Of a stretch of 32,000 nt of DNA, positions 15,303-28,255 are shown piece by piece. The stretch spans positions 28,432 to 60,431 of the forward strand of contig JAVSLW010000010.1 in NCBI GenBank assembly GCA_039666455.1, given 5' to 3'. The stretch comes from Methanobacterium sp. Its GTDB lineage: Archaea; Methanobacteriota; Methanobacteria; Methanobacteriales; Methanobacteriaceae. The number at the start of each line of letters is the position of its first letter. Position 1 is the stretch's first letter. The position numbers and the translations under genes were made by a program. The notes below the pieces were generated by a model. That model did no database searches. It saw only the letters and a program-made list of their open reading frames with translations, and was not told the origin of the DNA.

Positions 15303-15596
15303 GGGTTTAAGTATTTAAATTGTATCATATAAAAATGGCGATTGATTTAATGGCTTCATTTGGGAGTTTTTTGGATTAAAAAAAGTTATTGCACTTTTTT
15401 TCACGATTTAATTAATATTCAACGGTTTATTTGGTATATCTGATAGAATTAATTCATAGCAACGTATTATATTGATTAAATTAATAAATTTGGCTCTTAC
15501 TGGTATTTAAGTGTTGCTATTTATTTCAAATAGTAAATTTTTTAATAACAGGTGTATCATTTAGAATTAATATTGGATTATATGGGGAATGGGAGT

Positions 15597-16280
15597 ATGA
15601 TCAGGCGAGTGATGTTTTTTATTTTACTCTTTGCTTTTACACTGGTATTTTGCAGTGTAGCGGCAGCTGCAAATACCAATTACACTTATACAACTGACGA
15701 TGATTTTAACAGAGGTAATGGCACTGGTTTGAATGTTTCTGATAATCGGTTGCAGCTTTCCAGTAATTCTTCAGCATCCAGTTATTCATTTATCTGGGTT
15801 CCTAACAGTAATGAGGGAACTGTATCTAAGGTTAATACTGTTACTGGTCTGGAGGTGGCTCGTTATAGGGTTGGTCCTTCTGCGGGTTCTTCTCCTTCTC
15901 GTACTACTATTGATCTTGATGGTAATTGTTGGGTTGGTAACCGTGGAACTGGAACGGTGGTTAAGATTGGTTTGTTTGAAAATGGAGGTTATTTTGACCG
16001 TAATAATAATGGAATAATTGAAACCTGCAGAGATTTGGATGGTAATGGTGTTATAACAGCAGATGAAATTCTTCCAGGGGTGAAGATGAATGTGTACTAT
16101 GGGAAGTGGTGGTTATACCAGGACGTGAAGGTACCTATAGGCCGGGAAATTATACTGAAGGATATTCTAATGTTCCTGGACCCCGGGGGATTGCTGTTGA
16201 TAGTCAAAACAATATATGGGCAGGTACTTACGGCACACATAAATTTTACTATATTAATGGCTCTGATGGTCAAATATTGA
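15597..16280 (+). pseudogene. N-terminal fragment of surface beta-propeller/DUF11 protein paralog 1, cut off by a 1-nt frameshift near 16077
   Basis: The ATG at 15597 follows GGGAG. The signal peptide is MIRRVMFFILLFAFTLVFCSVAAAA. Homology to paralog 2 (NYIWVPNTNQGTISKV...) runs in this frame to about 16076 and then continues in the frame of ORF 16106..20746. Expected sequence is CCA TGG GGT GAA; observed is CCAGGGGTGAA. Confidence 0.75.
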
Positions 16281-19200
16281 AGACGGTGGATGTTTCATCG
16301 GTTGGTCATGGATCTTATGGGGCGGTGATTGACCAGTATGGTGTATTATGGTCTTCTGGAGGTGTTGGGAATAATATTTTAAGATTAGACCCTTCAAATG
16401 ACACATTCAAGAGAATTAATGTTCCTCACACTGCTTATGGACTGGGGCTTGATAGAAATAATCATTTATTTGTTTCTGGCTGGACATATTCCCGATTTTC
16501 CAGGATCAACATTCTCACTGGCACTATTGAATGGACAAAACCATGCCCATACCAATCCAGGGGAGTTGTTGTTACAGATGATGGTGATGTGTGGATTGCT
16601 AATTCTGCAGCAGGAACAGTGACTCGATATTCTAATGATGGTGACTTTAAAGCTACTATAATTGTTGGAAACACTCCTACCGGTGTTTCAGTGGATAACC
16701 AGGGTAAAATATGGGTGGTTGATAATGGTGATGAGTATATTCACCGGATTAACCCGCAGAAAGTTGATTCAGGAGATATTGAGAATGGGGTGGAATTATC
16801 CAAAAGAATCATCGGAGGTCTTCATTATGGTTACAGTGACATGACTGGAGTGGTGTCCAACACCATCACCACAAACAAAGGCATATGGACTGTAATCCAT
16901 GACACACAGATTAACAATGCTCTTTGGGGAAAAGTATCCTGGAACAGTCTTGAACCAGAAGGCACCAGAATAAAAGTGCGTGTTAGAAGCTCCAACAATA
17001 AACAGAACTGGTCAAATTGGGAAGAAGTAATTAATAGTGCTTTTCTTAGTTCAACACCTGGAGGCAGATATTTAGAGGTTGAAACAACTCTGGAAAGAAA
17101 TAAAGGCAATATTTCACCTGTACTTTATGATTTAACTGTTAAAGCCTTGAAAGCAGATGTTACACTTACCACAACTGTAAATAACCCTACACCACGCATA
17201 GGAGACACTGTTATATTTGTAACCATGGTTAGAAATAATGGGCCTGATACAGCAACCAATATAATGGTTTATCCTGTGTTACCATCTGGATTTACGGTGA
17301 TTACACCTTCTGTGGGGACATACAGTGACGGAGTATGGACTGTTGGGGTTTTGCGGCCTGGTGAAACAGCGACACTGGAAGTTACAGGAGTTATAACACC
17401 GGAATTTGCAAGCAGGAATATTAATTATTGGGTTAGTGAAACCCATAATGAATATGACCCAACAAATAGTTCAGTATCAAGTGCAAGTGTTTATGTTCCA
17501 TTTCAAAATGTTGAATTAAGCTATGAATTGAAAAATGGTAAACCTACGCTTACTGTAAGTAACACTGGAACTGATTATGCGTTTAATACTGCAATAAAAA
17601 CTACTATACCTTCAGGATTCACTCCTGAACCCTCTCATGGTTCATATAATAATGGGTTGTGGTTTATTGGTGCATTGTCTCCTGGTGGGGCGGTTGCACT
17701 GACTTTAACACCTATAATTAGTGGAGATAATGATCCATCTCCTCCTGTCTCTGTTGATGGTCACACCAAAGTTTCAAAAAAAGCAGTTCAAAAAAGAGGT
17801 TATTACAGGTATGGTGGTAGCATCCCTCCTCCTGAAAGGGATAATAGGACTGTTCCTATGCAGGATACTGGTGTGCCTCTTAATTTTTCTGGGCTTGCGA
17901 TTTTACTGGTTTTATTTGGATCCTATCTTAACAAAAGAGAAGACAAGTCCAAAATCAATAAATGGCTTTTATTGATCATAGTGTTATTTGGAGTTTTATT
18001 GTTCTGCAGCACTTCATTTGCTGCAGGCACCAATCAGACCTATAACTCATCAGATGATTTTAATAATGGTACTTTTAACAATGTAAATGGTTCTGGGGAT
18101 AAACTGGAGCTCAATAATTCATCTAAACCTGCAGGGAATTATATCTGGGTCCCCAACACTAATCAGGGCACAATATCCAAGGTGGATGTGCGCACAGGGC
18201 AAGAAGTGGCCAGGTATCGTACCAGCCCTCAAGGTAATGCTCATCCTTCCAGAACAGTGGTAGATTCTAATGGTAACTGCTGGGTGGCTAATTACCAAAC
18301 AGGAACCGTGGTTAAAATCGGCCTATTAGAGAATGGAGGATATATTGACCGGGATAATGATGGAACAATTCAGACAAGCCGGGATCTGGACCATAATGGA
18401 GTGATCACTGGAAGTGAACTTTTAGACTGGGGAAAAGACGAATGCATGCTTTATGAGACAGTTTTCATACCTGGACGTGAGGGTGCTTATGTCCCAGGTG
18501 CGTATACAGGAGGTTACGCTAATAACTGGAAGAATCCTGGACCTCTTGCAGTTGTACTGGATTCTGATAACAATGTGTGGGTCGGATGTTATGGATTGCA
18601 GAAGTACTTCTGCCTCGATGATACCACGGGTCAGATTCTGAAAACTATAGATGTTTCTTCAGTAGGACATACACCTTACGGGGCAGTGATAGATCAAAAT
18701 GGCATTATATGGTCTGCTGGCGGTGAAAATAGAAATATTCTTCAGCTTAACACTAATACCGGCTCTTTTACAAGGATTAATATTCCTCACTGGACATATG
18801 GCCTTGCCCTAGATGGGAATAACCATCTTTTTGTCACAGGTTACGTGAATTCACGTATTTCCAGGATTGATACCTTAAATGGCACGGTGGATTGGACTAA
18901 AACTGCTCCTAATGGGGCGAGGGGTGTTGTAGTTACTGAAGATGGTGATGTTTGGACAGCTAATCTGGAATCAGATACAGTTACCAGATTCTCCAACGAT
19001 GGTATTTTGAAAGCTACAATATATCCTGGAAAGGGACCCAGCGCTTTATCAGTTGATAGTGAAGGTAATGTCTGGGTTGTTGACTATAATGATGTTTATA
19101 TTCACCGTATAAACCCCGAAATTAATGGAGTGGACTTCTCTAAACTGATAGTCTCTGGAAGTCATGTGGGCTACAGTACAATGACGGCTCCTTCATCCAG

Positions 19201-20746
19201 TGCTTATGATAAGGGAACCTGGACAGTAATTCATGATTCCCTGACTGATAATGCTTATTGGGGTACTGTTAGCTGGAATAGTTATGAACCAAAGGGTACA
19301 AAAGTAACTGTACGTGTTAGAAGTTCCAACGATAAAACTAACTGGTCAAATTGGGAACCGGCAGATAATTACTTTAATCTAAAATTAACACCAAATGGAC
19401 AGTATTTAGAAGTTGAAGTGATTCTTGAGAAGTTTAACAGTACGCAGTCACCTGTAGTTTATGATGTTACTGTAAATACTTTGGATTCTACTGCTTTAAC
19501 AACTGATCTTGGTGTGAGCATCACTGGAAATCAAAGCAGTTTAAATGTAGGGGGTACTGTTAAATTAACCATTATAGCAAGAAATGAGGGCCCTAATCCT
19601 GCTAATGTTAAGGTTAATTATAAGATTCCGCTTGGTTTGAAATTGTTAAGTAGTCAGGGTACTGGAGCTTATGATTCAGAGACTGGGGTTTGGAGTGTGG
19701 GAATTTTACCTGTTGATAGTAATGTTACAATGGAATTGACTCTTCAAGCTAATAATGCAGGCGCTATTGTTAACACTGCTACAGTTTACAGTGATTTACC
19801 TGATTTAAATCCATTAAATAATCAGGCAGGGTTCAATTTAGTAACTAACGCACCAGACTTGGAATCAATTCCATCAGATGAATTGAATCCTTTACATTAT
19901 ACTTTTCCTGATGATATTAGGCCTCCAAATAATCCTCCAACACCGTCTGATACTCCACCAACTCCTGAACCACCTATACCTCCTTTACCTCCTTTACCTC
20001 CTTTACCTCCTTTACCTCCTTTACCTCCTTTACCTCCAGGTCCTGGACCTACACCACCTGACAATCCTCCAATTCCACCAAACCCTAATCCGCCTGCTGA
20101 ACCACAGAAACCATCAACTCAACTTGGTAGAGATATTGCCGGGGTGAGGCAGGCTGTTTCAAGTGGAAATACTGAGGAGAATGTGCCTGAGTGGACAGGT
20201 GATCCTGGGCCAGAATTTACTCAGGAAGAATATGAAGGTTGGGTTAAAACTATGCTGAAATTCTCTGTTGAAGTCGCTATTTTAGCTTTCATGGAATTCA
20301 CACCATCTGGTGGTTCAGCTTCTGGAGAATATTTACAGAGTGTAAAAAGTGCATTTTTAAATAATTTCAAAGCATTAAACACGATATCTAGCTACTTTAA
20401 CAAAGTGATGCGTACAAAACAAATTTTGGATGTTTTAGCTAAGGCAAATAAAATTATTAATAATCCTACTGTTCAAAAGGCTTTGAAGACCTGGGACGAA
20501 TTATTAAATAAAGCTGGTTTCAATTATGGAATGGAAGTGTTTAAAAGAGGCATGTATAAGTTATTCCCGGGTCAAGAGGCTAAAATTGATGCTTTATTAT
20601 TAGCATATTCAAGTGCACAGTTTATTCAAGATCCTGATGGCACAATAAATGCTGTAATAGACATTATCACCAGTCTAATGAAAGGGCAACTTCCTGATCG
20701 TGAAAGTTTTGAGAAAGTATTTATTTTTGACCCAGTACAGGATTAA
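16106..20746 (+). CDS. giant ORF holding the rest of paralog 1 fused in frame to full-length paralog 2, the master gene of the cassette locus
   Basis: Vgb/NHL-like beta-propeller blades are present (for example GVVVTDDGDVWIANSAAGTVTRYS). A beta-sandwich follows (VSWNS.EP.GT...VRVRSSN). DUF11-type repeats follow (GDTV...N.GP..A.NV...P.G). Residues near nt 17870-18010 carry a C-terminal-anchor-like segment immediately followed by a second signal peptide. Paralog 2 ends with a proline-rich linker, the QLGRDIAGVR motif and a unique tail of about 200 aa. The annotated GTG start at 16106 is an artefact of the frameshift. Confidence 0.8.
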   Translation: MVVIPGREGTYRPGNYTEGYSNVPGPRGIAVDSQNNIWAGTYGTHKFYYINGSDGQILKTVDVSSVGHGSYGAVIDQYGVLWSSGGVGNNILRLDPSNDTFKRINVPHTAYGLGLDRNNHLFVSGWTYSRFSRINILTGTIEWTKPCPYQSRGVVVTDDGDVWIANSAAGTVTRYSNDGDFKATIIVGNTPTGVSVDNQGKIWVVDNGDEYIHRINPQKVDSGDIENGVELSKRIIGGLHYGYSDMTGVVSNTITTNKGIWTVIHDTQINNALWGKVSWNSLEPEGTRIKVRVRSSNNKQNWSNWEEVINSAFLSSTPGGRYLEVETTLERNKGNISPVLYDLTVKALKADVTLTTTVNNPTPRIGDTVIFVTMVRNNGPDTATNIMVYPVLPSGFTVITPSVGTYSDGVWTVGVLRPGETATLEVTGVITPEFASRNINYWVSETHNEYDPTNSSVSSASVYVPFQNVELSYELKNGKPTLTVSNTGTDYAFNTAIKTTIPSGFTPEPSHGSYNNGLWFIGALSPGGAVALTLTPIISGDNDPSPPVSVDGHTKVSKKAVQKRGYYRYGGSIPPPERDNRTVPMQDTGVPLNFSGLAILLVLFGSYLNKREDKSKINKWLLLIIVLFGVLLFCSTSFAAGTNQTYNSSDDFNNGTFNNVNGSGDKLELNNSSKPAGNYIWVPNTNQGTISKVDVRTGQEVARYRTSPQGNAHPSRTVVDSNGNCWVANYQTGTVVKIGLLENGGYIDRDNDGTIQTSRDLDHNGVITGSELLDWGKDECMLYETVFIPGREGAYVPGAYTGGYANNWKNPGPLAVVLDSDNNVWVGCYGLQKYFCLDDTTGQILKTIDVSSVGHTPYGAVIDQNGIIWSAGGENRNILQLNTNTGSFTRINIPHWTYGLALDGNNHLFVTGYVNSRISRIDTLNGTVDWTKTAPNGARGVVVTEDGDVWTANLESDTVTRFSNDGILKATIYPGKGPSALSVDSEGNVWVVDYNDVYIHRINPEINGVDFSKLIVSGSHVGYSTMTAPSSSAYDKGTWTVIHDSLTDNAYWGTVSWNSYEPKGTKVTVRVRSSNDKTNWSNWEPADNYFNLKLTPNGQYLEVEVILEKFNSTQSPVVYDVTVNTLDSTALTTDLGVSITGNQSSLNVGGTVKLTIIARNEGPNPANVKVNYKIPLGLKLLSSQGTGAYDSETGVWSVGILPVDSNVTMELTLQANNAGAIVNTATVYSDLPDLNPLNNQAGFNLVTNAPDLESIPSDELNPLHYTFPDDIRPPNNPPTPSDTPPTPEPPIPPLPPLPPLPPLPPLPPLPPGPGPTPPDNPPIPPNPNPPAEPQKPSTQLGRDIAGVRQAVSSGNTEENVPEWTGDPGPEFTQEEYEGWVKTMLKFSVEVAILAFMEFTPSGGSASGEYLQSVKSAFLNNFKALNTISSYFNKVMRTKQILDVLAKANKIINNPTVQKALKTWDELLNKAGFNYGMEVFKRGMYKLFPGQEAKIDALLLAYSSAQFIQDPDGTINAVIDIITSLMKGQLPDRESFEKVFIFDPVQD
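17858..18020 (+). other. paralog junction: sorting-signal-like C-terminal anchor of paralog 1 running without a stop into the signal peptide of paralog 2
   Basis: The sequence is VPMQDTGVPLNFSGLAILLVLFGSYLNKREDKSKINKWLLLIIVLFGVLLFCSTSFAAGTNQ. There is no stop codon and no ATG between the anchor and the second signal peptide. In-frame ATG lies at 17858, TTG at 17972 and GTG at 17981, and none has a clear SD. Confidence 0.7.
19981..20034 (+). repeat. perfect 9-bp tandem repeat (TCCTTTACC) x6 encoding (PPL)n in the linker
   Basis: Six exact tandem copies were read directly from the sequence. The repeat is in frame. Confidence 0.95.
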
Positions 20747-20768
20747 ATAATATCTGAGGTGTATTATA

Positions 20769-21701
20769 ATGGGCATTATTGATAAGATGGAAGAGAAGAT
20801 AGAGGAGATGGATAAGAAAAGTAAGCAGAATATGGAGGATCTTTTTAGTTATCTTGGGGGTTTGGATATCAGGGGTTTGGACGGTATTCTTTCTGAAATT
20901 AAGAATATTAGGGATTCTGGGTTTTATAAAAAATTGATAGATGCTTCGAATTCTGATAAATTTGATGGTGATATTGATTTTTTGGGGGATTTGCCAAAAC
21001 ACAGAATAGAAATTCTATCATATGATAATTTAAAAAAAGGTGGTTTGTTTACAACAATTTTCACAAAATCAATTATTACTGTTCAAGATACGCTTACTTT
21101 ATATTCTTTTATTGAATCTGTTTATTTTATGCATAAAAGTCCTTTGGAAAAGGAGGATATGTTGAATATTTATTTTAGTGGTTTGGATGAGAGGATTATT
21201 TTTGCTTTAGATGATTTTAACACGGTTGAGCTTGAAAATTTGCCTGAACCCACCCCAGAATATATTAAATCACTGGGCAAAACCTATTGGGAAGAAAAAA
21301 AACTCTACAAAAAATTAAACAAACTAATGTTCGAAGTAATGGATTTTAGTTTGAATTATCCAGACTTTAAAGATTGGTCTTCTGAATATAGGTCTACTGA
21401 GGATCTTTTTGTTCAATTTTTAGCGGCCTGTAATGCAGTGAATAATGGCCGTTTAGGAATTGGAACTGAAGATACTATTGTGGCATATAAAACTTTTTTT
21501 AAGCTTATTAAAACAGATGTTACCAAGTACAAAGCTATTCCTGAGAGAATAACTGATCTGGATAATCATGGCGATTATTTAGTTTGTAAGAAGTGTGGAA
21601 CCTATTATCAAATCCCTGAAGGTGAATCAGTAGACGATTACTCTGATAATTGTGAGTGCGGGGGAAAATTAAAGTATTTGGGCTCTCCTGCTATAAAATA
21701 A
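20769..21701 (+). CDS. partner protein P1 of the expressed C-terminal domain (unknown family, C-terminal CxxC...CxC zinc ribbon)
   Basis: A GAGGTG SD lies 9 nt upstream, and the gene starts 22 nt after the master stop. It is homologous to P2 and P3 ([18 protein letters not shown]; [12 protein letters not shown]...[16 protein letters not shown]). The ribbon is [31 protein letters not shown]. Confidence 0.8.
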
Positions 21702-21741
21702 GATAAATAATAAAAATAACACTTACTGGACCACTATAAGC

Positions 21742-23103
21742 TTGAACAGTTATGAACCACATGGTACAAAGATTACAGTACGTGTTAGAAGCTCTAACGA
21801 TAAACAAAGCTGGTCTGCATGGGAGGATGCTATAAATGGTGCTAGTTTACGTTTAACTCCGCGTGGAAGGTATTTAGAAGTTGAAGTAACTCTAGAGAAG
21901 TTTAACAGTGCACAGTCACCTGTAGTTTACGATGTTACTGTAAATACTTTGGATTCTACTGCTTTAACAACAGATCTTGGTGCGAGCATCACTGGAAATC
22001 AAAGCAGCTTGAATGTTGGTGAAACAGTTAAATTAACCGTTACAGCTTTTAATAATGGTCCAAATAGTGCAAGTGTTAAGGTTAATTATAAGATTCCGCT
22101 TGGTTTGAAATTGTTAAGCAGTCAAGGAACTGGAACTTACGATTCCGATACTGGAATTTGGAATGTGGGAGTTTTACCTGCTGGAGGTGATGCTACAATG
22201 GAATTAATCCTTCAGGCTAATAATGCAGGTTCTATTGTGAATACTGCTATTGTTTACAGTGATTTACCTGATTTAAATCCATTAAATAATCAGGCGGGGT
22301 TCAATTTAGTAGCTAACGCACCAGACTTGGATGATATTCCAGGGGATGGGTTGAATGGTTTGCCATATGATTTCCCTGATGAAGTTAAGCCTCCGAATAA
22401 CCCACCTAATAATCCTCCAAATCAGCCTCCTAATAATCCACCTGCTCCACCAACACCTCCAAATCCTAATCCTCCAATTCCACCTACACCACCAGGTCCA
22501 GGTCCTGGGTCATCCAATCCACCACGTACGCAGTTAGATCGTGATATTGGCTATGTTAGGGGTTATGTAGGATATACTCCTAGTAATAATCAAAACACTA
22601 ATGATAGCTCAAATGGAAATCAGACTACACAACCACCTCAAATGCCAGGATGGGACGTAGATACAAGTGTTATTGAACAATTAATATTAGCTTCGTGTCT
22701 TGTATCGGGCGGGTTAGCGTTTGCTTTCCTTTCTGATACAGATATGAAAAATAAAATAGCTAAATTTGTTGTAGATAAGGCTGCCGGTAAAAACTTTGTA
22801 TTTAGACCTCAAGATGTGGCTTTATTTGCATTAGATGTAGTATGCTTCTTAGTTAGCCCCGATCTTTTCAGTTATGTGATGATTGTCTATCAAACATTTG
22901 CATTTATGCAATATATAGATATTTTAACTAAGTCCGTCCAAACAAATATCTATGCTATATTTTCGGCGGTTATTCTAATGTTAAGTTTAGCTGTTATTCT
23001 TAAGAACATAGCAGATAATAAATTAAATAGTCCCTTATTTAATGCCATAGACTGGATTGAACAGTTTGTAAAAGATTATATTAAGAAATTATTTGGAAAG
23101 TAG
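21742..23103 (+). CDS. orphan cassette 2: 5'-truncated copy of the master 3' region (beta-sandwich end, DUF11, Pro-rich linker) with a different multi-TM C-terminal domain
   Basis: Homology to master nt ~19250 onward begins at ~21718, 16 nt after the P1 stop. An in-frame stop lies at 21694-21696. There is no ATG and no SD; the track start is a TTG that replaces the master Trp codon. The junction motif [10 protein letters not shown] lies at 22531-22560, and unrelated sequence follows. Confidence 0.75.
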
Positions 23104-23108
23104 GAGAC

Positions 23109-24086
23109 ATGTCAATGGCGTCATTTAAAAAAATTTTTCAATCAACAGATGAAAAGCTAGAATTATTAATCGATGATTTTAGAAAAGAATATGGGTCTAT
23201 TTTTGATTTTATTATTGTTAATTTGGATGATCTTGAAAAATTAGGTTATGATGATTTTTTGGTTAGTGTTTCTAAAAGGGCATATCCTCCTTATTTTGAC
23301 GCTGATGATCTTTTTAGTTTTGATAAAAATGTTATTGCTGGAGGAGATACAAAAAAGATTAGGAAATATATTGATAAAATGCGCCTTAGGAATTTAGCAA
23401 AAAAAGAATTAATTTACTGGACTTCAGAAGGACCGACTAATAGGCTAATTTATGGGGCTTTTGAAGGATATAAAAATGCTTATATTGAATATGCCCATTT
23501 TTCTAGAATTTATCTCTTTTTGGAAAGGCTTTATTGTAGGGTTGTTGGTAGAAAATTAGGGCTTTTTGATTTATTTAATGTTTATTTCAGTGGTTTAGAT
23601 GAATCAATAACTTTTAATCTAGATAAATTTGATATAAATACTCATACAAGAGAACCTACAGCAGAATTCTTTAAAAAACTAGATAAAATAAAGAATCCCG
23701 ACCAAGAAGTGGTTAATTGTGAATATGAATTTCGAAAAATCATGAGAATGAGCCTATCTTTAAAATATGGAAACTTTGGTTCATTTGCAAGGATTGAAGA
23801 AGAGTTTGTATCTTATCTTGCTGGCTGTAGTGCTGTGAATGATGACAGATCAGGACTTACTATTGATGATTATATTACAGCTTATAGGACTTATTATAAG
23901 CTTCTAAAAACTGATGTAACCCAATATAGGTGCAAAAGAGAGCTATTTCATGATTATGATTATGGTGGCTATTTAATGTGTAAAGAATGTAATGGTTACT
24001 ATAAACTAGAAGAAGGCGAATTTCCTGATGATTTTGATAAGTGTCAGTGTGGTGGAGAGTTAGAATATAAAATAGAATTAAATTAG
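23109..24086 (+). CDS. partner protein P2 (same family as P1, C-terminal zinc ribbon)
   Basis: AGGAG overlaps the cassette 2 stop, and the ATG lies 5 nt after that stop. Family motifs are present: [18 protein letters not shown], and [12 protein letters not shown]...[16 protein letters not shown]. The ribbon is [30 protein letters not shown]. Confidence 0.8.
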
Positions 24087-24140: not shown

Positions 24141-24659
24141 ATGAAAGGGAAATTCAATGGTTTAATAGTTTGTAAGAAATGTAATGGCTATTATGAGCTT
24201 CAATCTGGTGAATCTCCCACTGATTTCGATAAATGTCAGTGCGGTGGGAAGTTAGAGTATTCAGAATTTTCAAGTAATTTAAAACCTGCTAAAAATCAAT
24301 TGAAATACGCATTAATTTTAGGAATTGTTATAGGTTTTATTTCATCTTTCTTATTGAAAATGGTAGTTTTAGGAGTATTGGCTGGTGGTTTTGTGGCTGC
24401 TTATAGGTTTGGCGGCACTTTAAAGGATGGTTTAAAAAGCGGTTTTATTACTGGTGCTATTATAATGTTTTTAATTAATTTAATGATTCTAATTGGAGGA
24501 TTTATTAAAAATCAAGATAATTATGGGATTTTAGGAATCAATGTTCATGGGCCTGTTATGACTATCATTTTTTTAATAATTACCATGTTTATTGGAGGAG
24601 TAATAGCAGCAATTACTGGTTTGATTGGAGTGAAAATAAAATCTATAATAAGCAAATGA
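24141..24659 (+). CDS. zinc-ribbon membrane protein (N-terminal ribbon paralogous to the P1/P2 C-termini, plus about 4 TM helices)
   Basis: An AGGAG SD is present. The N-terminal ribbon [30 protein letters not shown] is nearly the same as the P2 ribbon. Glycine-rich hydrophobic helices follow. Confidence 0.75.
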
Positions 24660-24782
24660 AGCAATATTTATAATTAGAATCTTATTTAGAAATGTCCCAT
24701 AAAGTATTTAGAAGTTGAAGTAGCTCTTGAGAAGTTTAATAGTACACAATCACCTGTAGTTTATGATGTTACTGTAAGTACT

Positions 24783-25934
24783 TTGGATTCTACTGCTTTG
24801 GCAACTGATCTTGGTGTGACTATCACTGGAAATAAAAATACTTTAAATCTGGGCGATACTGTTAAATTAGCCGTTACAGCTTTTAATAATGGTCCAAATA
24901 GTGCTAATGTCAAAGTAGATTATAAGATTCCGTTTGGTTTGAAATTGTTAAGTTATAATGGGGAGGGAACATATGATTCAAGTACTGGTATTTGGAGTGT
25001 AGGGATATTACCTGCTGGAAGCAATGCGTCAATGGAGTTGACTCTTCAGGCTAATAATACTGGTTATTTTGTTAATTTAGTTAGTGTTTATGGTGATTTG
25101 GCGTTGTTCAGTACTAAGAGTTTAAGTGGGGTGGTTAGGGCGTTTTCAGTGAAAGCTGCTTCAGTGGGTGATCTTAATCCTGGTAATAATCAGGCGAGTT
25201 ATGATATAACTTCAATTGATCCAGTACAAACCGCTGATACGAATACTTTTACGTATGATTTTCCTCCTGTTACTCCACCTACACAGCCACAACCACCGAA
25301 TAATCCTCCTACACCCCCTGGACCTATTCCACCTGAACCACAACCTCCAGGTCCAACACCTCCAAATAATCCACTACATCCTACAAGTCAGCTTGGACGT
25401 GATATTGCCGGAGTTAGAAATGCAATTTCACAGGGTACATTGAAAGATGCTATGAATAAATCTGTACTACCTGAATGGAATTTAACTCAGGATAATGAGC
25501 CTGAAGAGCCTGAAGAGGATCCACCATTGTGGTTTTATGCTATAATCATAATAGGTGCTTTAATTGGAGCCGCTTTAGTCATTACTCCTGCAGGAGAATA
25601 CTTGCAAAGAATAATAAATGGAATTCTCGCAGCATTGTCATCTGCATGGGTGTATTTGTCTTATTTGGGTTATTCATTGAAAAAATTCCTTGAAAATGCA
25701 ATATTAAGGATTTTTATTCAGTATGAGAGCTATATTTCGGCTGTTCTTCAGGAATTATATTCTACTCCTTTAACTGGTATTGGACCTACTACAATAATTG
25801 GACTTGGTTTAAGATTTTTAGCAGAAAAATTTCCAGTTCTTAAACCTTTCATTGCACCTTTTATACATACTTTAGACCAATTAACATACTATGAAATTTC
25901 CAAAAAATTAAATGAATTATTTAACAAAAAATAG
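24783..25934 (+). CDS. orphan cassette 3: more deeply 5'-truncated copy (from YLEVEV onward) with a third distinct C-terminal domain
   Basis: Homology to master nt ~19403 starts at ~24705. An in-frame stop lies at 24687-24689. There is no ATG and no SD; the track start is an internal TTG Leu codon. The junction motif QLGRDIAGVR lies at 25389-25418. The tail contains hydrophobic helices. Confidence 0.75.
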   Translation: MDSTALATDLGVTITGNKNTLNLGDTVKLAVTAFNNGPNSANVKVDYKIPFGLKLLSYNGEGTYDSSTGIWSVGILPAGSNASMELTLQANNTGYFVNLVSVYGDLALFSTKSLSGVVRAFSVKAASVGDLNPGNNQASYDITSIDPVQTADTNTFTYDFPPVTPPTQPQPPNNPPTPPGPIPPEPQPPGPTPPNNPLHPTSQLGRDIAGVRNAISQGTLKDAMNKSVLPEWNLTQDNEPEEPEEDPPLWFYAIIIIGALIGAALVITPAGEYLQRIINGILAALSSAWVYLSYLGYSLKKFLENAILRIFIQYESYISAVLQELYSTPLTGIGPTTIIGLGLRFLAEKFPVLKPFIAPFIHTLDQLTYYEISKKLNELFNKK

Positions 25935-25950
25935 TATATTTGGTGATATA

Positions 25951-26670
25951 ATGCCATCTCATAATGATCTAGCAAATTATGGTTTGAAAAGACTAAGAAA
26001 AGTTTGTTCTTCTGATTTAGATGAATTAATGACTGAATTACATTTTTTAATTGATTCAGGTTATTATCATAATTTATTGGAAATTTATTATAACTGGAAA
26101 GAACCCGTACCTTTATTAAGTGATAACACAACAGAAATTGCCCTTGAAAGTTCTCTTTTAGTTATGGCAGCTGAAAATCTAAAGAACTTTCCTGTTAAAT
26201 TTCTATCAGATTTAATTGATTATAACACGTTTTATTTTTTCTTTCCTTTTCTGGAATGGATTTATTCAATGAATTTGGGGAGACAATTAACTGCAGAAGA
26301 CGTTAGGAAAATATTTAAAAATGACATTGGTGAAAGAATTGTATTTGCATTAGAGGATTTTGATAAAATTAATGAAATATCAAAGCCAACTCCGGAATTT
26401 TTTCAGAAACTCAGGAAACTAAAATGGAAAAATAGACAAACCAAAAAAATTTACAATGAAGTGAATAAAATAGTATCACTTTTTATTTTTAAAAAATATA
26501 GTTTTAAAGAGTCATCTTTTAGTATTAGGCAGGAGGACATAGTGTTATTTTTAGCAGGTTGCAGTGCAGTAAACAAAGAAAAGGAAAAAATAGATGAAAA
26601 AGACGTTATACGTGCCTATAAAACATTATTTAAAATCATTAAAACGGATATATCAAAATTTATAGACTAA
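25951..26670 (+). CDS. partner protein P3 (P1/P2 family, lacking the zinc ribbon)
   Basis: Family motifs are present: IGERIVFALEDFDK, and [12 protein letters not shown]...AYKTLFKIIKTDISKF. It ends exactly where the cassette 4 homology begins. The ATG at 25951 lies 16 nt after the cassette 3 stop and follows GGTGA. The track alternative at 25912 overlaps cassette 3 and has no SD. Confidence 0.7.
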   Translation: MPSHNDLANYGLKRLRKVCSSDLDELMTELHFLIDSGYYHNLLEIYYNWKEPVPLLSDNTTEIALESSLLVMAAENLKNFPVKFLSDLIDYNTFYFFFPFLEWIYSMNLGRQLTAEDVRKIFKNDIGERIVFALEDFDKINEISKPTPEFFQKLRKLKWKNRQTKKIYNEVNKIVSLFIFKKYSFKESSFSIRQEDIVLFLAGCSAVNKEKEKIDEKDVIRAYKTLFKIIKTDISKFID

Positions 26671-26697
26671 ACAACCACTTCAACTACAGATCTGGCT

Positions 26698-27618
26698 GTG
26701 ACTATCACTGGAGATAAAAATAGTTTAAATGTTGGTGATACTGTTAAATTAACTATCACATCCTTGAATAATGGGCCAAAATCGGCTGATATTAAAGTGG
26801 ATTACAAAATATCTTTCGGTTTGAAGTTATTAAGCAGTCAGGGAACTGGAACTTACGATTCAGAGACTGGGGTTTGGAATGTTGGGATATTACCTGCTGG
26901 AGGTAATGCTACAATGGAGTTGACTCTTCAAACTAATAATGCTGGTCATTTCATTAATTTAGTGTCGGTTTATGGTGATTTGGCGTTGTTCAGTACTAAG
27001 AGTTTAAGTGGGGTGGTTAGGGCGTTTTCAGTGAAAGCTGCTTCAGTGGGTGATCCTAATCCTGGTAATAATCAGGCGAGTTATGATATAACTTCAATTG
27101 ATCCAGTACAAACCGCTGATACGAATACTTTTACGTATGATTTTCCTCCTGTTACTCCACCTACACAGCCACAACCACCGAATAATCCTCCTACACCCCC
27201 TGGACCTACTCCACCTGAACCACAACCTCCAGGTCCAACACCTCCAAATAATTCATCACAGCCTACAGGTCAGCTTGGACGTGATATTTTAACGGTTCGA
27301 GATGTAGTTTCAACTGGAACACAACTTGATGCAGGGAAATTAGTTTGTGAACAGAATGATCAAAATAGCTGGAAAACCGTAGGAGATATATTAAATGAAG
27401 TGTTTGGTTCACCTGATTTTGATATATTAGCTTTAATTGCTCTACTTGCTTATATGACATCATTTTTATTAAGTGCAGGATATGGGCTATTACTTGGATG
27501 GACAATTGCAGGAATTATGGCTGCATCATTTTTGGTTTATGCTGCTATTTTATTTATTATAACAATGTTGATATTAATATGGGTATTATATAAATTTTAT
27601 AGCCGTCCAAAATCATAA
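26698..27618 (+). CDS. orphan cassette 4: most truncated copy (from TTDL.V.ITG onward) with a fourth, strongly hydrophobic C-terminal domain
   Basis: Homology to master nt ~19499 starts at 26671, directly after the P3 TAA and in the same frame. There is no ATG and no SD; the track start is an internal GTG Val codon. The junction motif QLGRDILTVR lies at 27271-27300. The tail has 2-3 TM helices. Confidence 0.75.
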   Translation: MTITGDKNSLNVGDTVKLTITSLNNGPKSADIKVDYKISFGLKLLSSQGTGTYDSETGVWNVGILPAGGNATMELTLQTNNAGHFINLVSVYGDLALFSTKSLSGVVRAFSVKAASVGDPNPGNNQASYDITSIDPVQTADTNTFTYDFPPVTPPTQPQPPNNPPTPPGPTPPEPQPPGPTPPNNSSQPTGQLGRDILTVRDVVSTGTQLDAGKLVCEQNDQNSWKTVGDILNEVFGSPDFDILALIALLAYMTSFLLSAGYGLLLGWTIAGIMAASFLVYAAILFIITMLILIWVLYKFYSRPKS

Positions 27619-27631
27619 AGGAGAATAAATC

Positions 27632-28255
27632 TTGACATCAGAGAATATCCAAGCTGAAAAAATGGTTGAAGGGTTAATTGCATATATAATGGAGTTTGAG
27701 CCGGATAGACCCCCAGCACCGATAGGTATTATCCCTTATTCTTTTAACACCTTTTTTAAACTATTATCTAAGCAGAAACAAAGAAATTATTTTGTAAAGA
27801 ATGTTCCTGATTTGTATCAAGAAACTCGAAAAGAAATGGAATCTTATTTTGAAAATGCAACAAAATTTGATGCTAAAGATATATTGAAAATTTTTTTCCT
27901 ATTAATTTTATGGATATCTGCTCTAGGAGGATTATTTATATTTATGTTTGGACTAATTCTTGATTTTAATTTTTTTCAAGGAATTTTGTCTATTATCATA
28001 GTGGGCACACCAAGTACATATTTATTTCTTGTATGGATGATTACAAGGCGTAGAAACTATTTTGGAAAGAAATACGATGAAAACATAAAAAGAGCAGTTC
28101 AACACTTAATTGATTATGGCAGAGATAAAATTATAGAAGAAAACCTCAATCCCAAAGATTTTCCTATTAAATTAAGGCATAAGGATTATACTGGTTTAGT
28201 TTATGAAAAGAAAGGTAAAAATAATTATGTGGGGTTTTTTAGAAATGAAGAATAA
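27632..28255 (+). CDS. partner protein P4 (unrelated to P1-P3; membrane protein with central TM helices)
   Basis: An AAGGAG SD lies 8 nt upstream of the TTG at 27632, and an ATG alternative lies 10 codons in. The hydrophobic core is ILKIFFLLILWISALGGLFIFMFGLIL...IIIVGTPSTYLFLVWMI. Confidence 0.65.
   Translation: MTSENIQAEKMVEGLIAYIMEFEPDRPPAPIGIIPYSFNTFFKLLSKQKQRNYFVKNVPDLYQETRKEMESYFENATKFDAKDILKIFFLLILWISALGGLFIFMFGLILDFNFFQGILSIIIVGTPSTYLFLVWMITRRRNYFGKKYDENIKRAVQHLIDYGRDKIIEENLNPKDFPIKLRHKDYTGLVYEKKGKNNYVGFFRNEE

Follow-up and report, generated by a model that had tools for sequence, protein, structure and literature searches.

We analysed a stretch of 32,000 nucleotides from a Methanobacterium sp. 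assembly (GCA_039666455.1, contig JAVSLW010000010.1, positions 28,432 to 60,431 of the forward strand), called the window below, in which a ten-residue peptide, QLxRDIxxVR, occurs four times at the boundary between the conserved scaffold of a surface protein and the C-terminal region (CT) that follows the motif. The peptide is best explained as the conserved head of an exchangeable C-terminal cassette on a Methanobacterium adhesin-like surface protein. The window has a G+C content of 35% and carries the cassette cluster as a chromosomal island flanked by housekeeping genes, with the Hef helicase-nuclease, Cdc6, ATCase and a peptide ABC transporter on one flank and TMEM175 and a DUF362 Fe-S protein on the other. 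Four modules (M1 to M4) were identified, one full-length at the end of the open reading frame (ORF) 16106-20746 and three 5'-truncated ones downstream of it; the gene after each module is called its partner. All features of the cluster described here lie on the + strand.

According to its Pfam matches (DUF11 at 3.6e-45, Vgb_lyase, SGL and NHL) and its translation, the long ORF at 16106-20746 continues a paralogue, copy A, to its end and runs on in frame into the full-length main gene, copy B. The main gene is ordered as an NHL/SGL-type propeller, DUF11, a proline-rich stalk, the motif, a spacer, a tryptophan, a hydrophobic helix and the CT body. Its last DUF11 domain (Pfam; aa 1134-1242, 19505-19831) is part of an upstream recombination arm common to the three cassettes. 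The 74-aa proline-rich stalk of M1 (19898-20119) leads into the expressed copy of the motif, QLGRDIAGVR (20120-20149), and this into an acidic spacer with a PEW motif (20150-20242), in which one tryptophan lies at 20192-20194 and a nearly invariant one at 20240-20242, before the hydrophobic helix. The CT body of M1 (20243-20746; type I, class A) comprises a moderately hydrophobic helix with a conserved Glu, a helical region of ~140 aa and the stop. Partner 1 (20769-21701, 310 aa) is a cytoplasmic, all-alpha protein with a C-terminal CxxC...CxCGG zinc ribbon, preceded by a GAGGTG Shine-Dalgarno sequence.

The first silent cassette, M2 (21697-23103), retains the end of the pre-DUF11 region, DUF11 and the stalk, followed by the motif (22531-22560) and a type II CT with 3-4 transmembrane (TM) helices. 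Partner 2 (23109-24086, 325 aa) belongs to the same family as partner 1 and has an AGGAG Shine-Dalgarno sequence. M3 (24690-25934) has a truncated DUF11, the stalk, the motif QLGRDIAGVR (25389-25418) and a type I, class C CT with one strong TM helix; its partner 3 (25912-26670, 252 aa) is a family member without the zinc ribbon. M4 (26671-27618) is likewise composed of a truncated DUF11, the stalk, the motif QLGRDILTVR (27271-27300) and a CT, here of type IV (105 aa, 2-3 TM helices), and is followed by a gene for a 207-aa protein with two TM helices that lies outside the partner family (27632-28255). The M2-M4 ORFs start inside or just before the DUF11 region, right after the preceding gene, and have no signal peptide, recognisable start codon or Shine-Dalgarno sequence; each retains 190-280 codons of DUF11 and stalk. 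The gene after each module is separated from it by a gap of at most 25 nt or shows a short overlap, and has an AGGAG or GGTG Shine-Dalgarno sequence. The upstream arms form a family of 300-nt direct repeats, D1 (19502-19801, 21970-22269, 24804-25103 and 26686-26985), which are 76-79% identical.

A sequence-only reading of this DNA had placed the motif at these four positions, and the coordinates proved exact. Across the window's six frames, QL.RDI..VR matches these four copies, which fit QL[GD]RDIxxVR, and nothing else. The motif was also correctly described as lying right after a proline-rich linker in all four modules: the linkers are 49-74 residues long, and P, G, S, N or T make up 75-90% of the 40 residues preceding the motif. 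A T or S before the Q, included in the originally proposed motif, was found in three window copies (T, T and S), but the fourth has G, and family-wide the position is T, D, G, N or S. The motif was found in every relative, that is in 20 of 20 proteins, in 34 modules of genome loci and in 22 metagenome modules. No loss from homologues, which the sequence-only reading had named as a result that would speak against it, was seen, as all protein relatives carry the motif after a Pro- or Gly/Ser-rich linker. We concluded that the motif is not a chance pattern, because its four copies are paralogous, as members of the D1 repeat family, and because it recurs in every relative.

All protein relatives came from Methanobacterium or Methanobacteriaceae. 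A genome-wide scan with the partner profile gave 28 loci, all in Methanobacteriaceae except for three short contigs binned to bacteria, and the motif regular expression found the 34 modules of these genome loci all in the same orientation as their partners. The cassettes on the bacterial-binned contigs (L009, Spirochaetae; L011, Bacteroidetes; L023, Bacillota) are typical of Methanobacterium, and the binning of these contigs is probably wrong. Scanning metagenomes for the coding pattern QLxRDIAG[VI]R gave the 22 family-type modules, which have low G+C, the upstream linker and the same downstream architecture, together with 24 context-free chance matches in high-G+C contigs. A degenerate and seemingly decaying cassette is common to the metagenome contigs L072, L093 and L097; its motif is intact, whereas its CT is truncated at 72 residues. 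Cassette arrays organised as in the window were found in M. petrolearium (L002/L003), where three cassettes accompany one full gene, and, with five modules, in the metagenome contig L001. When a profile including the DUF11 columns (391 positions) was run against the protein representatives, the top 150 matches were giant DUF11 repeat proteins.

The sequence-only reading had proposed a role for the motif beyond that of a crossover point. According to a rival explanation it has no role in the protein and is either a hotspot of crossovers at the DNA level or a leftover from recent duplication; the window copies are indeed paralogues, and junctions do map inside the motif. We compared the codons in 30 distinct DNA versions of the motif. 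Q, L, D and the final R were invariant in all 30, R4 was kept in 29 and I in 25, and position 9 was V or I throughout, whereas the x positions varied freely, including G, P and Y. The Q was encoded by two codons (CAA, CAG) and the D by two (GAT, GAC); for the L five codons occurred, from the TTR family as well as the CTN family, and the last R (R10) also used five, from both the AGR and CGN families. Since the invariant residues are encoded by two to five synonymous codons, selection acts on the peptide and not on the DNA. By this codon evidence a purely DNA-level role, and conservation by recent duplication alone, are excluded. The motif is furthermore kept between species whose flanking scaffolds lack any similarity, and junctions are found outside the motif as well, and we regard the hotspot or leftover explanation as highly improbable. 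In an AlphaFold model the motif opens the first helix that follows the stalk, with a predicted local distance difference test score (pLDDT) of only ~55. The idea that the motif forms an amphipathic helix found no support: its hydrophobic moment was 0.41 versus 0.28 +/- 0.14 for shuffled sequences, 19.5% of which had an equal or higher value, and the tolerance of Gly and Pro at the x positions also disfavours it.

Break points were mapped from motif-anchored DNA comparisons and are given relative to the motif start. Independent breaks were located at +18/19 nt, after RDI (M3 versus M4, and L1_e versus M2), at +32/33 nt (M1 versus L1_e), at +49/50 nt (M1 versus L1_d), at +91 nt in the first W motif and, where a W precedes the hydrophobic helix, at ~+137 and +157 nt. 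Further breaks lay in the linker at -72 to -39 nt, where insertions and deletions confound the mapping. The motif had been called the exact boundary; it is central in the junction zone and the most frequent site, but the breaks spread over ~230 nt and do not form a single point. The window (20116-22088) and L001 (11372-13331) have a block of 95% identity in common, whose start lies 4 nt ahead of the motif. In the syntenic locus L004, identity is 82-89% along the main gene; the second cassette there departs from M2 ~137 nt past the M2 motif start, and the third combines an M4-like arm with a different CT.

Between window modules the 200 aa upstream of the motif are 57-85% identical. The 105-198 residues downstream aligned at noise level (global scores of at most 2), and BLAST between the post-motif regions of the window modules gave no match at E<=1e-3. 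The collapse of similarity reported earlier thus holds between the window modules, but the loss is not complete, since 47 of 61 CT bodies belong to one divergent superfamily. Weak similarity between M3 and M4 persists for ~11 residues past the motif, and distant homology between the CTs of M1 and M3 was established via intermediates.

Mantel tests were performed with 28 complete cassettes from related Methanobacterium genomes. Identity of the CT bodies correlated with that of the partners (r=0.89, p=2e-4) without a discordant pair, and the correlation was still r=0.73 for pairs with <50% CT identity. Identity of the upstream scaffold was correlated neither with the CT body (r=0.02) nor with the partner (r=-0.03): 21 pairs had an upstream identity of at least 70% and a CT-body identity below 30%, and 8 pairs showed the reverse. 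The spacer was only partly coupled to the CT body (r=0.53, eight discordant pairs), which confirms a second junction at the W. In M. petrolearium and M. subterraneum the window's class-A CT (68-71% identity) and its partner (76-81%) are found on a Big_13 immunoglobulin (Ig) scaffold without similarity to that of the window, and in L001 the same CT (98%) and partner (100%) stand in an orphan position behind a different DUF11 remnant. From these comparisons of sequence, CT and partner travel and diverge together, uncoupled from the scaffold. The proposal that the motif, in the manner of VENN and PxxxxDPxGL, sits where a conserved scaffold meets an exchangeable tip at the C-terminus is borne out by the co-varying downstream gene, by the truncated cassettes after the full gene, by the same CT and partner on unrelated scaffolds, and by the block shared with another genome that starts just before the motif.

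After the motif the CTs have a short spacer, often a W motif, an acidic stretch, a nearly invariant W and the hydrophobic helix. The spacers are of the sub-types xAVSSG or xYVGYxP, and the W motif that is often present next has the form [IVM]P[ED]W. The first W motif is often P[ED]W-N-[LMV]-[TS] (window 20186-20200 and 25470-25487, and family-wide), and an N-x-[ST] sequon directly follows the first W in 14 of 58 CTs, which would fit an extracellular spacer. The 15 residues before the hydrophobic helix have a mean net charge of -3.8 and the C-flank +0.1, and the Kyte-Doolittle (KD) hydropathy of the helix was >=1.6 in 19 of 28 cases. In class-A-like type I CTs a Glu is conserved mid-helix ([GSA][VAG]E[VLT]; window 20243-20299, L001, L002, L004, L007-L012), which is unusual for a simple anchor; it is not found in class-C members such as M3.

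The 61 CT bodies were typed by clustering the bodies alone and comparing the groups with hhalign. An initial single-linkage clustering had placed all CTs in one family; the linking edges were traced to shared spacers, and the bodies were re-clustered. Four body types without detectable mutual homology (hhalign probability <=10%) were obtained. Type I (47 sequences, including M1 and M3) has one helix, often with the mid-helix Glu, and then ~130 helical residues; type II (10 sequences, including M2) has 3-4 TM helices, type III comprises 3 sequences, and type IV is represented by M4 alone, with 2-3 TM helices. Types I-III pair with the partner family and type IV with a membrane protein. A CT profile gave nothing below E=0.19 against PDB sequences. 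In PADLOC the M4 CT (27301-27618), which consists only of TM helices, weakly matched the PycTM effector domain (E=0.0012); the match may simply reflect TM composition and was not relied on.

Partners 1-3 are mutually homologous (32-41% identity) and without TM segments, and two of them end in the CxxC...CxCGG zinc ribbon. At 90% identity their family comprises at least 121 clusters, none with an annotation other than hypothetical, and it had no match in Pfam, NCBIfam, PADLOC, PHROG or PDB; the partner profile gave nothing below E=0.19 against PDB sequences, and no relatives were found in the viral contigs searched. The AlphaFold model of a partner is confident (pLDDT 83, predicted template modelling score (pTM) 0.79) and shows an all-alpha domain and the zinc ribbon, without a Foldseek match in PDB or BFVD. 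A partner follows 27 of the 28 complete genome-derived modules with contig room for a downstream gene, and 14 of 14 complete metagenome modules. An attempt to locate the specificity region by halving the partners did not succeed: the split was obtained for half of the partners, and both the N and the C halves co-vary with the CT.

Members of the partner family also occur outside simple pairs. Tandem paralogues with 55-64% identity and no CT between them (L002 5189-6085/6154-7029; L001 6960-7730/7877-8620) resemble extra 'immunity-only' genes. Solitary or tandem homologues of ~250-320 aa without the zinc ribbon (L022 9989-10747, L026 9917-10888, L019 9272-10747) lie in housekeeping surroundings with no adjoining surface-protein module. 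After some cassettes there is a small gene for a zinc ribbon-DUF5518 multi-TM protein (L001 2352-2870 and window 24141-24659); the window copy has a DUF5518 match at 1.8e-9 and a zinc ribbon 58-69% identical to those of the partners. In other genomes a whole partner is fused to DUF5518 (P0071, P0122), which suggests that partners can be membrane-tethered. Distant homologues (28-38% identity) follow large proteins without the motif, in L014 and L016 and in L020, L021, L025 and L027; in one of these motif-less groups a Gly/Ser linker leads straight into a TM-rich tail, and another has a long Lys-rich tail ending in G[LI]W. The range of surface-protein tails served by the partner family is therefore broader than the motif-bearing set.

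The reading that we favour is a lineage-specific system with the layout of a polymorphic toxin system. In it the CT would act as an effector that inserts into membranes, the partner would bind it specifically, and the motif would be needed with any CT; we hold this reading to be an evenly balanced proposition. The DUF11 and stalk remnant of a silent cassette would serve as a homology arm, and recombination between the expressed gene and the cassette would replace the CT and bring in the cognate partner in one step, which is the logic of polymorphic toxin systems. The rationale for such toxin-immunity cassette pairs was given by Zhang et al. 2012 (PMC3482391). The CT would most likely insert into membranes, with the partner neutralising or binding it specifically. 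The motif would link the wall-spanning stalk to the membrane-active CT; a role as hinge, docking or processing element is possible and speculative.

Several observations weigh against this proposition. No CT had a match, to a toxin or otherwise, in Pfam, NCBIfam, PADLOC, PHROGs or PDB sequences. The AlphaFold2 model of the class-A CT (22 sequences) was all-helical but unreliable (pLDDT 43, pTM 0.26), and the helical, amphipathic character of the motif was not significant. The flanks of the hydrophobic helix predict that the CT stays in the membrane of the producer with its tail in the cytoplasm, which suits an anchor as well as an effector. The partners of three unrelated CT types form one family with a conserved zinc-ribbon core, which is unusual for immunity proteins, and partner homologues also stand alone in housekeeping contexts. 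No delivery apparatus was evident. The hydrophobic character of the CTs is compatible with a membrane-active toxin and is no proof of one.

The main rival, a serious one, is that the system is not toxic. In that case the CT would anchor the adhesin-like protein in the membrane by one or more TM helices and end in a cytoplasmic tail, and the partner would be a cytoplasmic adaptor or regulator binding that tail; the stalk would span the pseudomurein wall, the motif and spacer would be juxtamembrane, and swaps would vary the specificity of anchoring, signalling or kin recognition. The hydrophobic helix with its acidic outer flank and conserved interfacial W, for which an N-out, C-in topology is predicted, is consistent with an anchor, and C-terminal membrane anchors have been described for Methanobacteriales adhesin-like proteins (PMC11532034). 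Partners without TM segments, with a zinc-ribbon core common to unrelated CT types and sometimes fused to or trailed by a DUF5518 membrane domain, could be adaptors, and no toxin domain was found. However, the hypervariability lies in the membrane and cytoplasmic part and not in the exposed ectodomain, and four unrelated CT body types exceed the needs of an anchor. Taken with the intact, translatable partners of silent cassettes and the tandem partner-only genes, this placement of the hypervariability is hard to explain without conflict-type selection. We consider the anchor and adaptor explanation possible but doubtful.

In another alternative a Methanobacterium envelope enzyme, either a peptidase or a sortase-like transpeptidase, would recognise the motif and cut the ectodomain from the membrane-embedded CT; the ectodomain might then be linked to pseudomurein, and the CT would be a long disposable sorting signal. 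An N-terminal fragment of copy A, with signal peptide and propeller start, is encoded at 15552-16280 and has the hydrophobic segment VMFFILLFAFTLVFCSVAA at aa 20-38. Its homology to copy B resumes in another frame from ~16080-16110, where the fragment changes into the long ORF (15552-16280 versus 16106-...); this frame shift reflects either a pseudogene or an error in the metagenome-assembled genome. At the in-frame junction of the two copies (17852-18022) VPMQDTGVPLN precedes a hydrophobic helix, after which come the basic loop NKREDKSKINK and a signal-peptide-like helix ending SFA|AG (KD 1.8 and 2.64), and no stop codon separates copy A from copy B. The same arrangement, an LPXTG-like VPMQ[DN]TGVPLN, a helix, a basic loop and an in-frame signal-like helix, is seen in M. 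petrolearium (L002 ~nt 590-720), where the second ectodomain is unrelated to that of the window. Copies A and B could together make up a polyprotein that signal peptidase, a sortase-like enzyme or both would cleave.

For the sorting alternative speaks that the motif lies right after a stalk of the wall-spanning type and 30-50 residues before the hydrophobic helix, in the order of Gram-positive sorting signals, that copy A ends with the LPXTG-like PMQDTG, a helix and a basic tail, and that the motif is conserved as a peptide independently of both neighbouring regions. A disposable signal, however, needs neither 105-215 residues nor four body types nor a co-varying 300-aa partner, and no candidate enzyme was found in the window. 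As an explanation in its own right it is quite unlikely. A processing or sorting role is compatible with the polymorphic-toxin-like reading, as its processing step, and equally with an anchor. A more far-reaching form of the favoured reading is an archaeal-native contact-dependent effector system in methanogens with pseudomurein walls, in which the stalk would cross the wall, the motif would be the site of processing or release, the released, membrane-inserting CT would kill or mark neighbours without the cognate zinc-ribbon partner, and weapon and shield would be changed together by silent cassettes; it would be independent of the bacterial systems and would comprise new effector, immunity and pre-toxin families. 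This stronger version we consider rather unlikely.

We compared the locus with known systems. Like polymorphic toxin systems (PMC3482391), it has an exported, stalked protein whose tip varies behind a short junction motif, with a cognate gene immediately downstream, arrayed 5'-truncated cassettes of tip and partner, extra partner-only genes and joint exchange between scaffolds. The exported constant body consists of signal-like helices, the NHL/SGL propeller, DUF11 and the proline stalk; the C-terminal domain varies and is exchanged by recombination; and truncated cassettes are arrayed in the window (three), in L001 (five) and in L002 (three). The downstream gene is adjacent and co-varies as expected of a cognate gene, and a single partner family for unrelated tips is atypical. 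The locus differs from these systems in its archaeal host, with only a Sec-type signal, in having no TPS, FHA or YD repeats and no type V, VI or VII secretion system, and in a motif unrelated to VENN, DPxGL, PT-TG and PT-HINT. Its tips are hydrophobic or helical without a recognisable toxin fold, and most belong to one superfamily; one zinc-ribbon family partners three unrelated tip types. Pfam and NCBIfam searches of the long ORF and the adjacent genes found none of the CdiA/CdiB features (TPS domain, FHA repeats, CdiB, PT-VENN). No RHS/YD repeats were matched by Pfam, and the junction peptide is QLxRDIxxVR and not that of Rhs proteins; a DPxG does occur inside type I CT bodies, ~150 residues past the junction. 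Zhang et al. 2012 (PMC3482391) regarded classical polymorphic toxin systems as rare among archaea and as being, for the most part, acquisitions from bacteria.

Among archaeal systems, VARTIG of Thermococcales (Makarova et al. 2021, PMC8416519) comes closest in concept. Both are lineage-specific archaeal loci with a large surface protein whose C-terminal domain is hypervariable by recombination, with variable downstream genes, some for membrane proteins, and with a polymorphic-toxin-like layout without an identifiable toxin. In VARTIG a short conserved motif was proposed as a cleavage site (PMC8416519). The variable part there is an extracellular Ig domain, whereas here it is a helical region in the membrane or cytoplasm; lineage, domains and motif also differ, and the window locus has a single dedicated partner family whose co-variation was quantified. 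With the adhesin-like proteins of Methanobacteriales (PMC11532034; bioRxiv 10.64898/2026.08.03.742440) the main gene shares the taxonomic order and the character of a large, repeat-rich surface protein with N-terminal and sometimes C-terminal hydrophobic helices, and the M. petrolearium homologue has an Ig-type (Big) scaffold. The window protein, a large repeat surface protein with a terminal hydrophobic helix, thus has the general features of this group, but it carries the NHL propeller and DUF11 instead of the defining archaeal Big and right-handed beta-helix domains (ABD/RBH), and the papers on adhesin-like proteins describe no cassette arrays, junction motif or partner family. In the searchable literature the motif, the CT types, the partner family and the cassette arrays are not described; the 2019 survey of archaeal polymorphic toxins (Makarova et al., mBio) was outside this search, and a prior mention there is possible.

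Antagonism and kin discrimination among methanogens are almost unstudied. This locus displays the complete genetic logic of polymorphic toxin systems with parts drawn from families restricted to Methanobacteriaceae, and it offers experimental handles in the ten-residue motif, the four CT types, the confidently modelled new partner fold and natural strain pairs that differ in their cassettes. If the system is non-toxic, it would still be a previously undescribed, recombination-driven variation of the membrane-proximal end of methanogen surface proteins.

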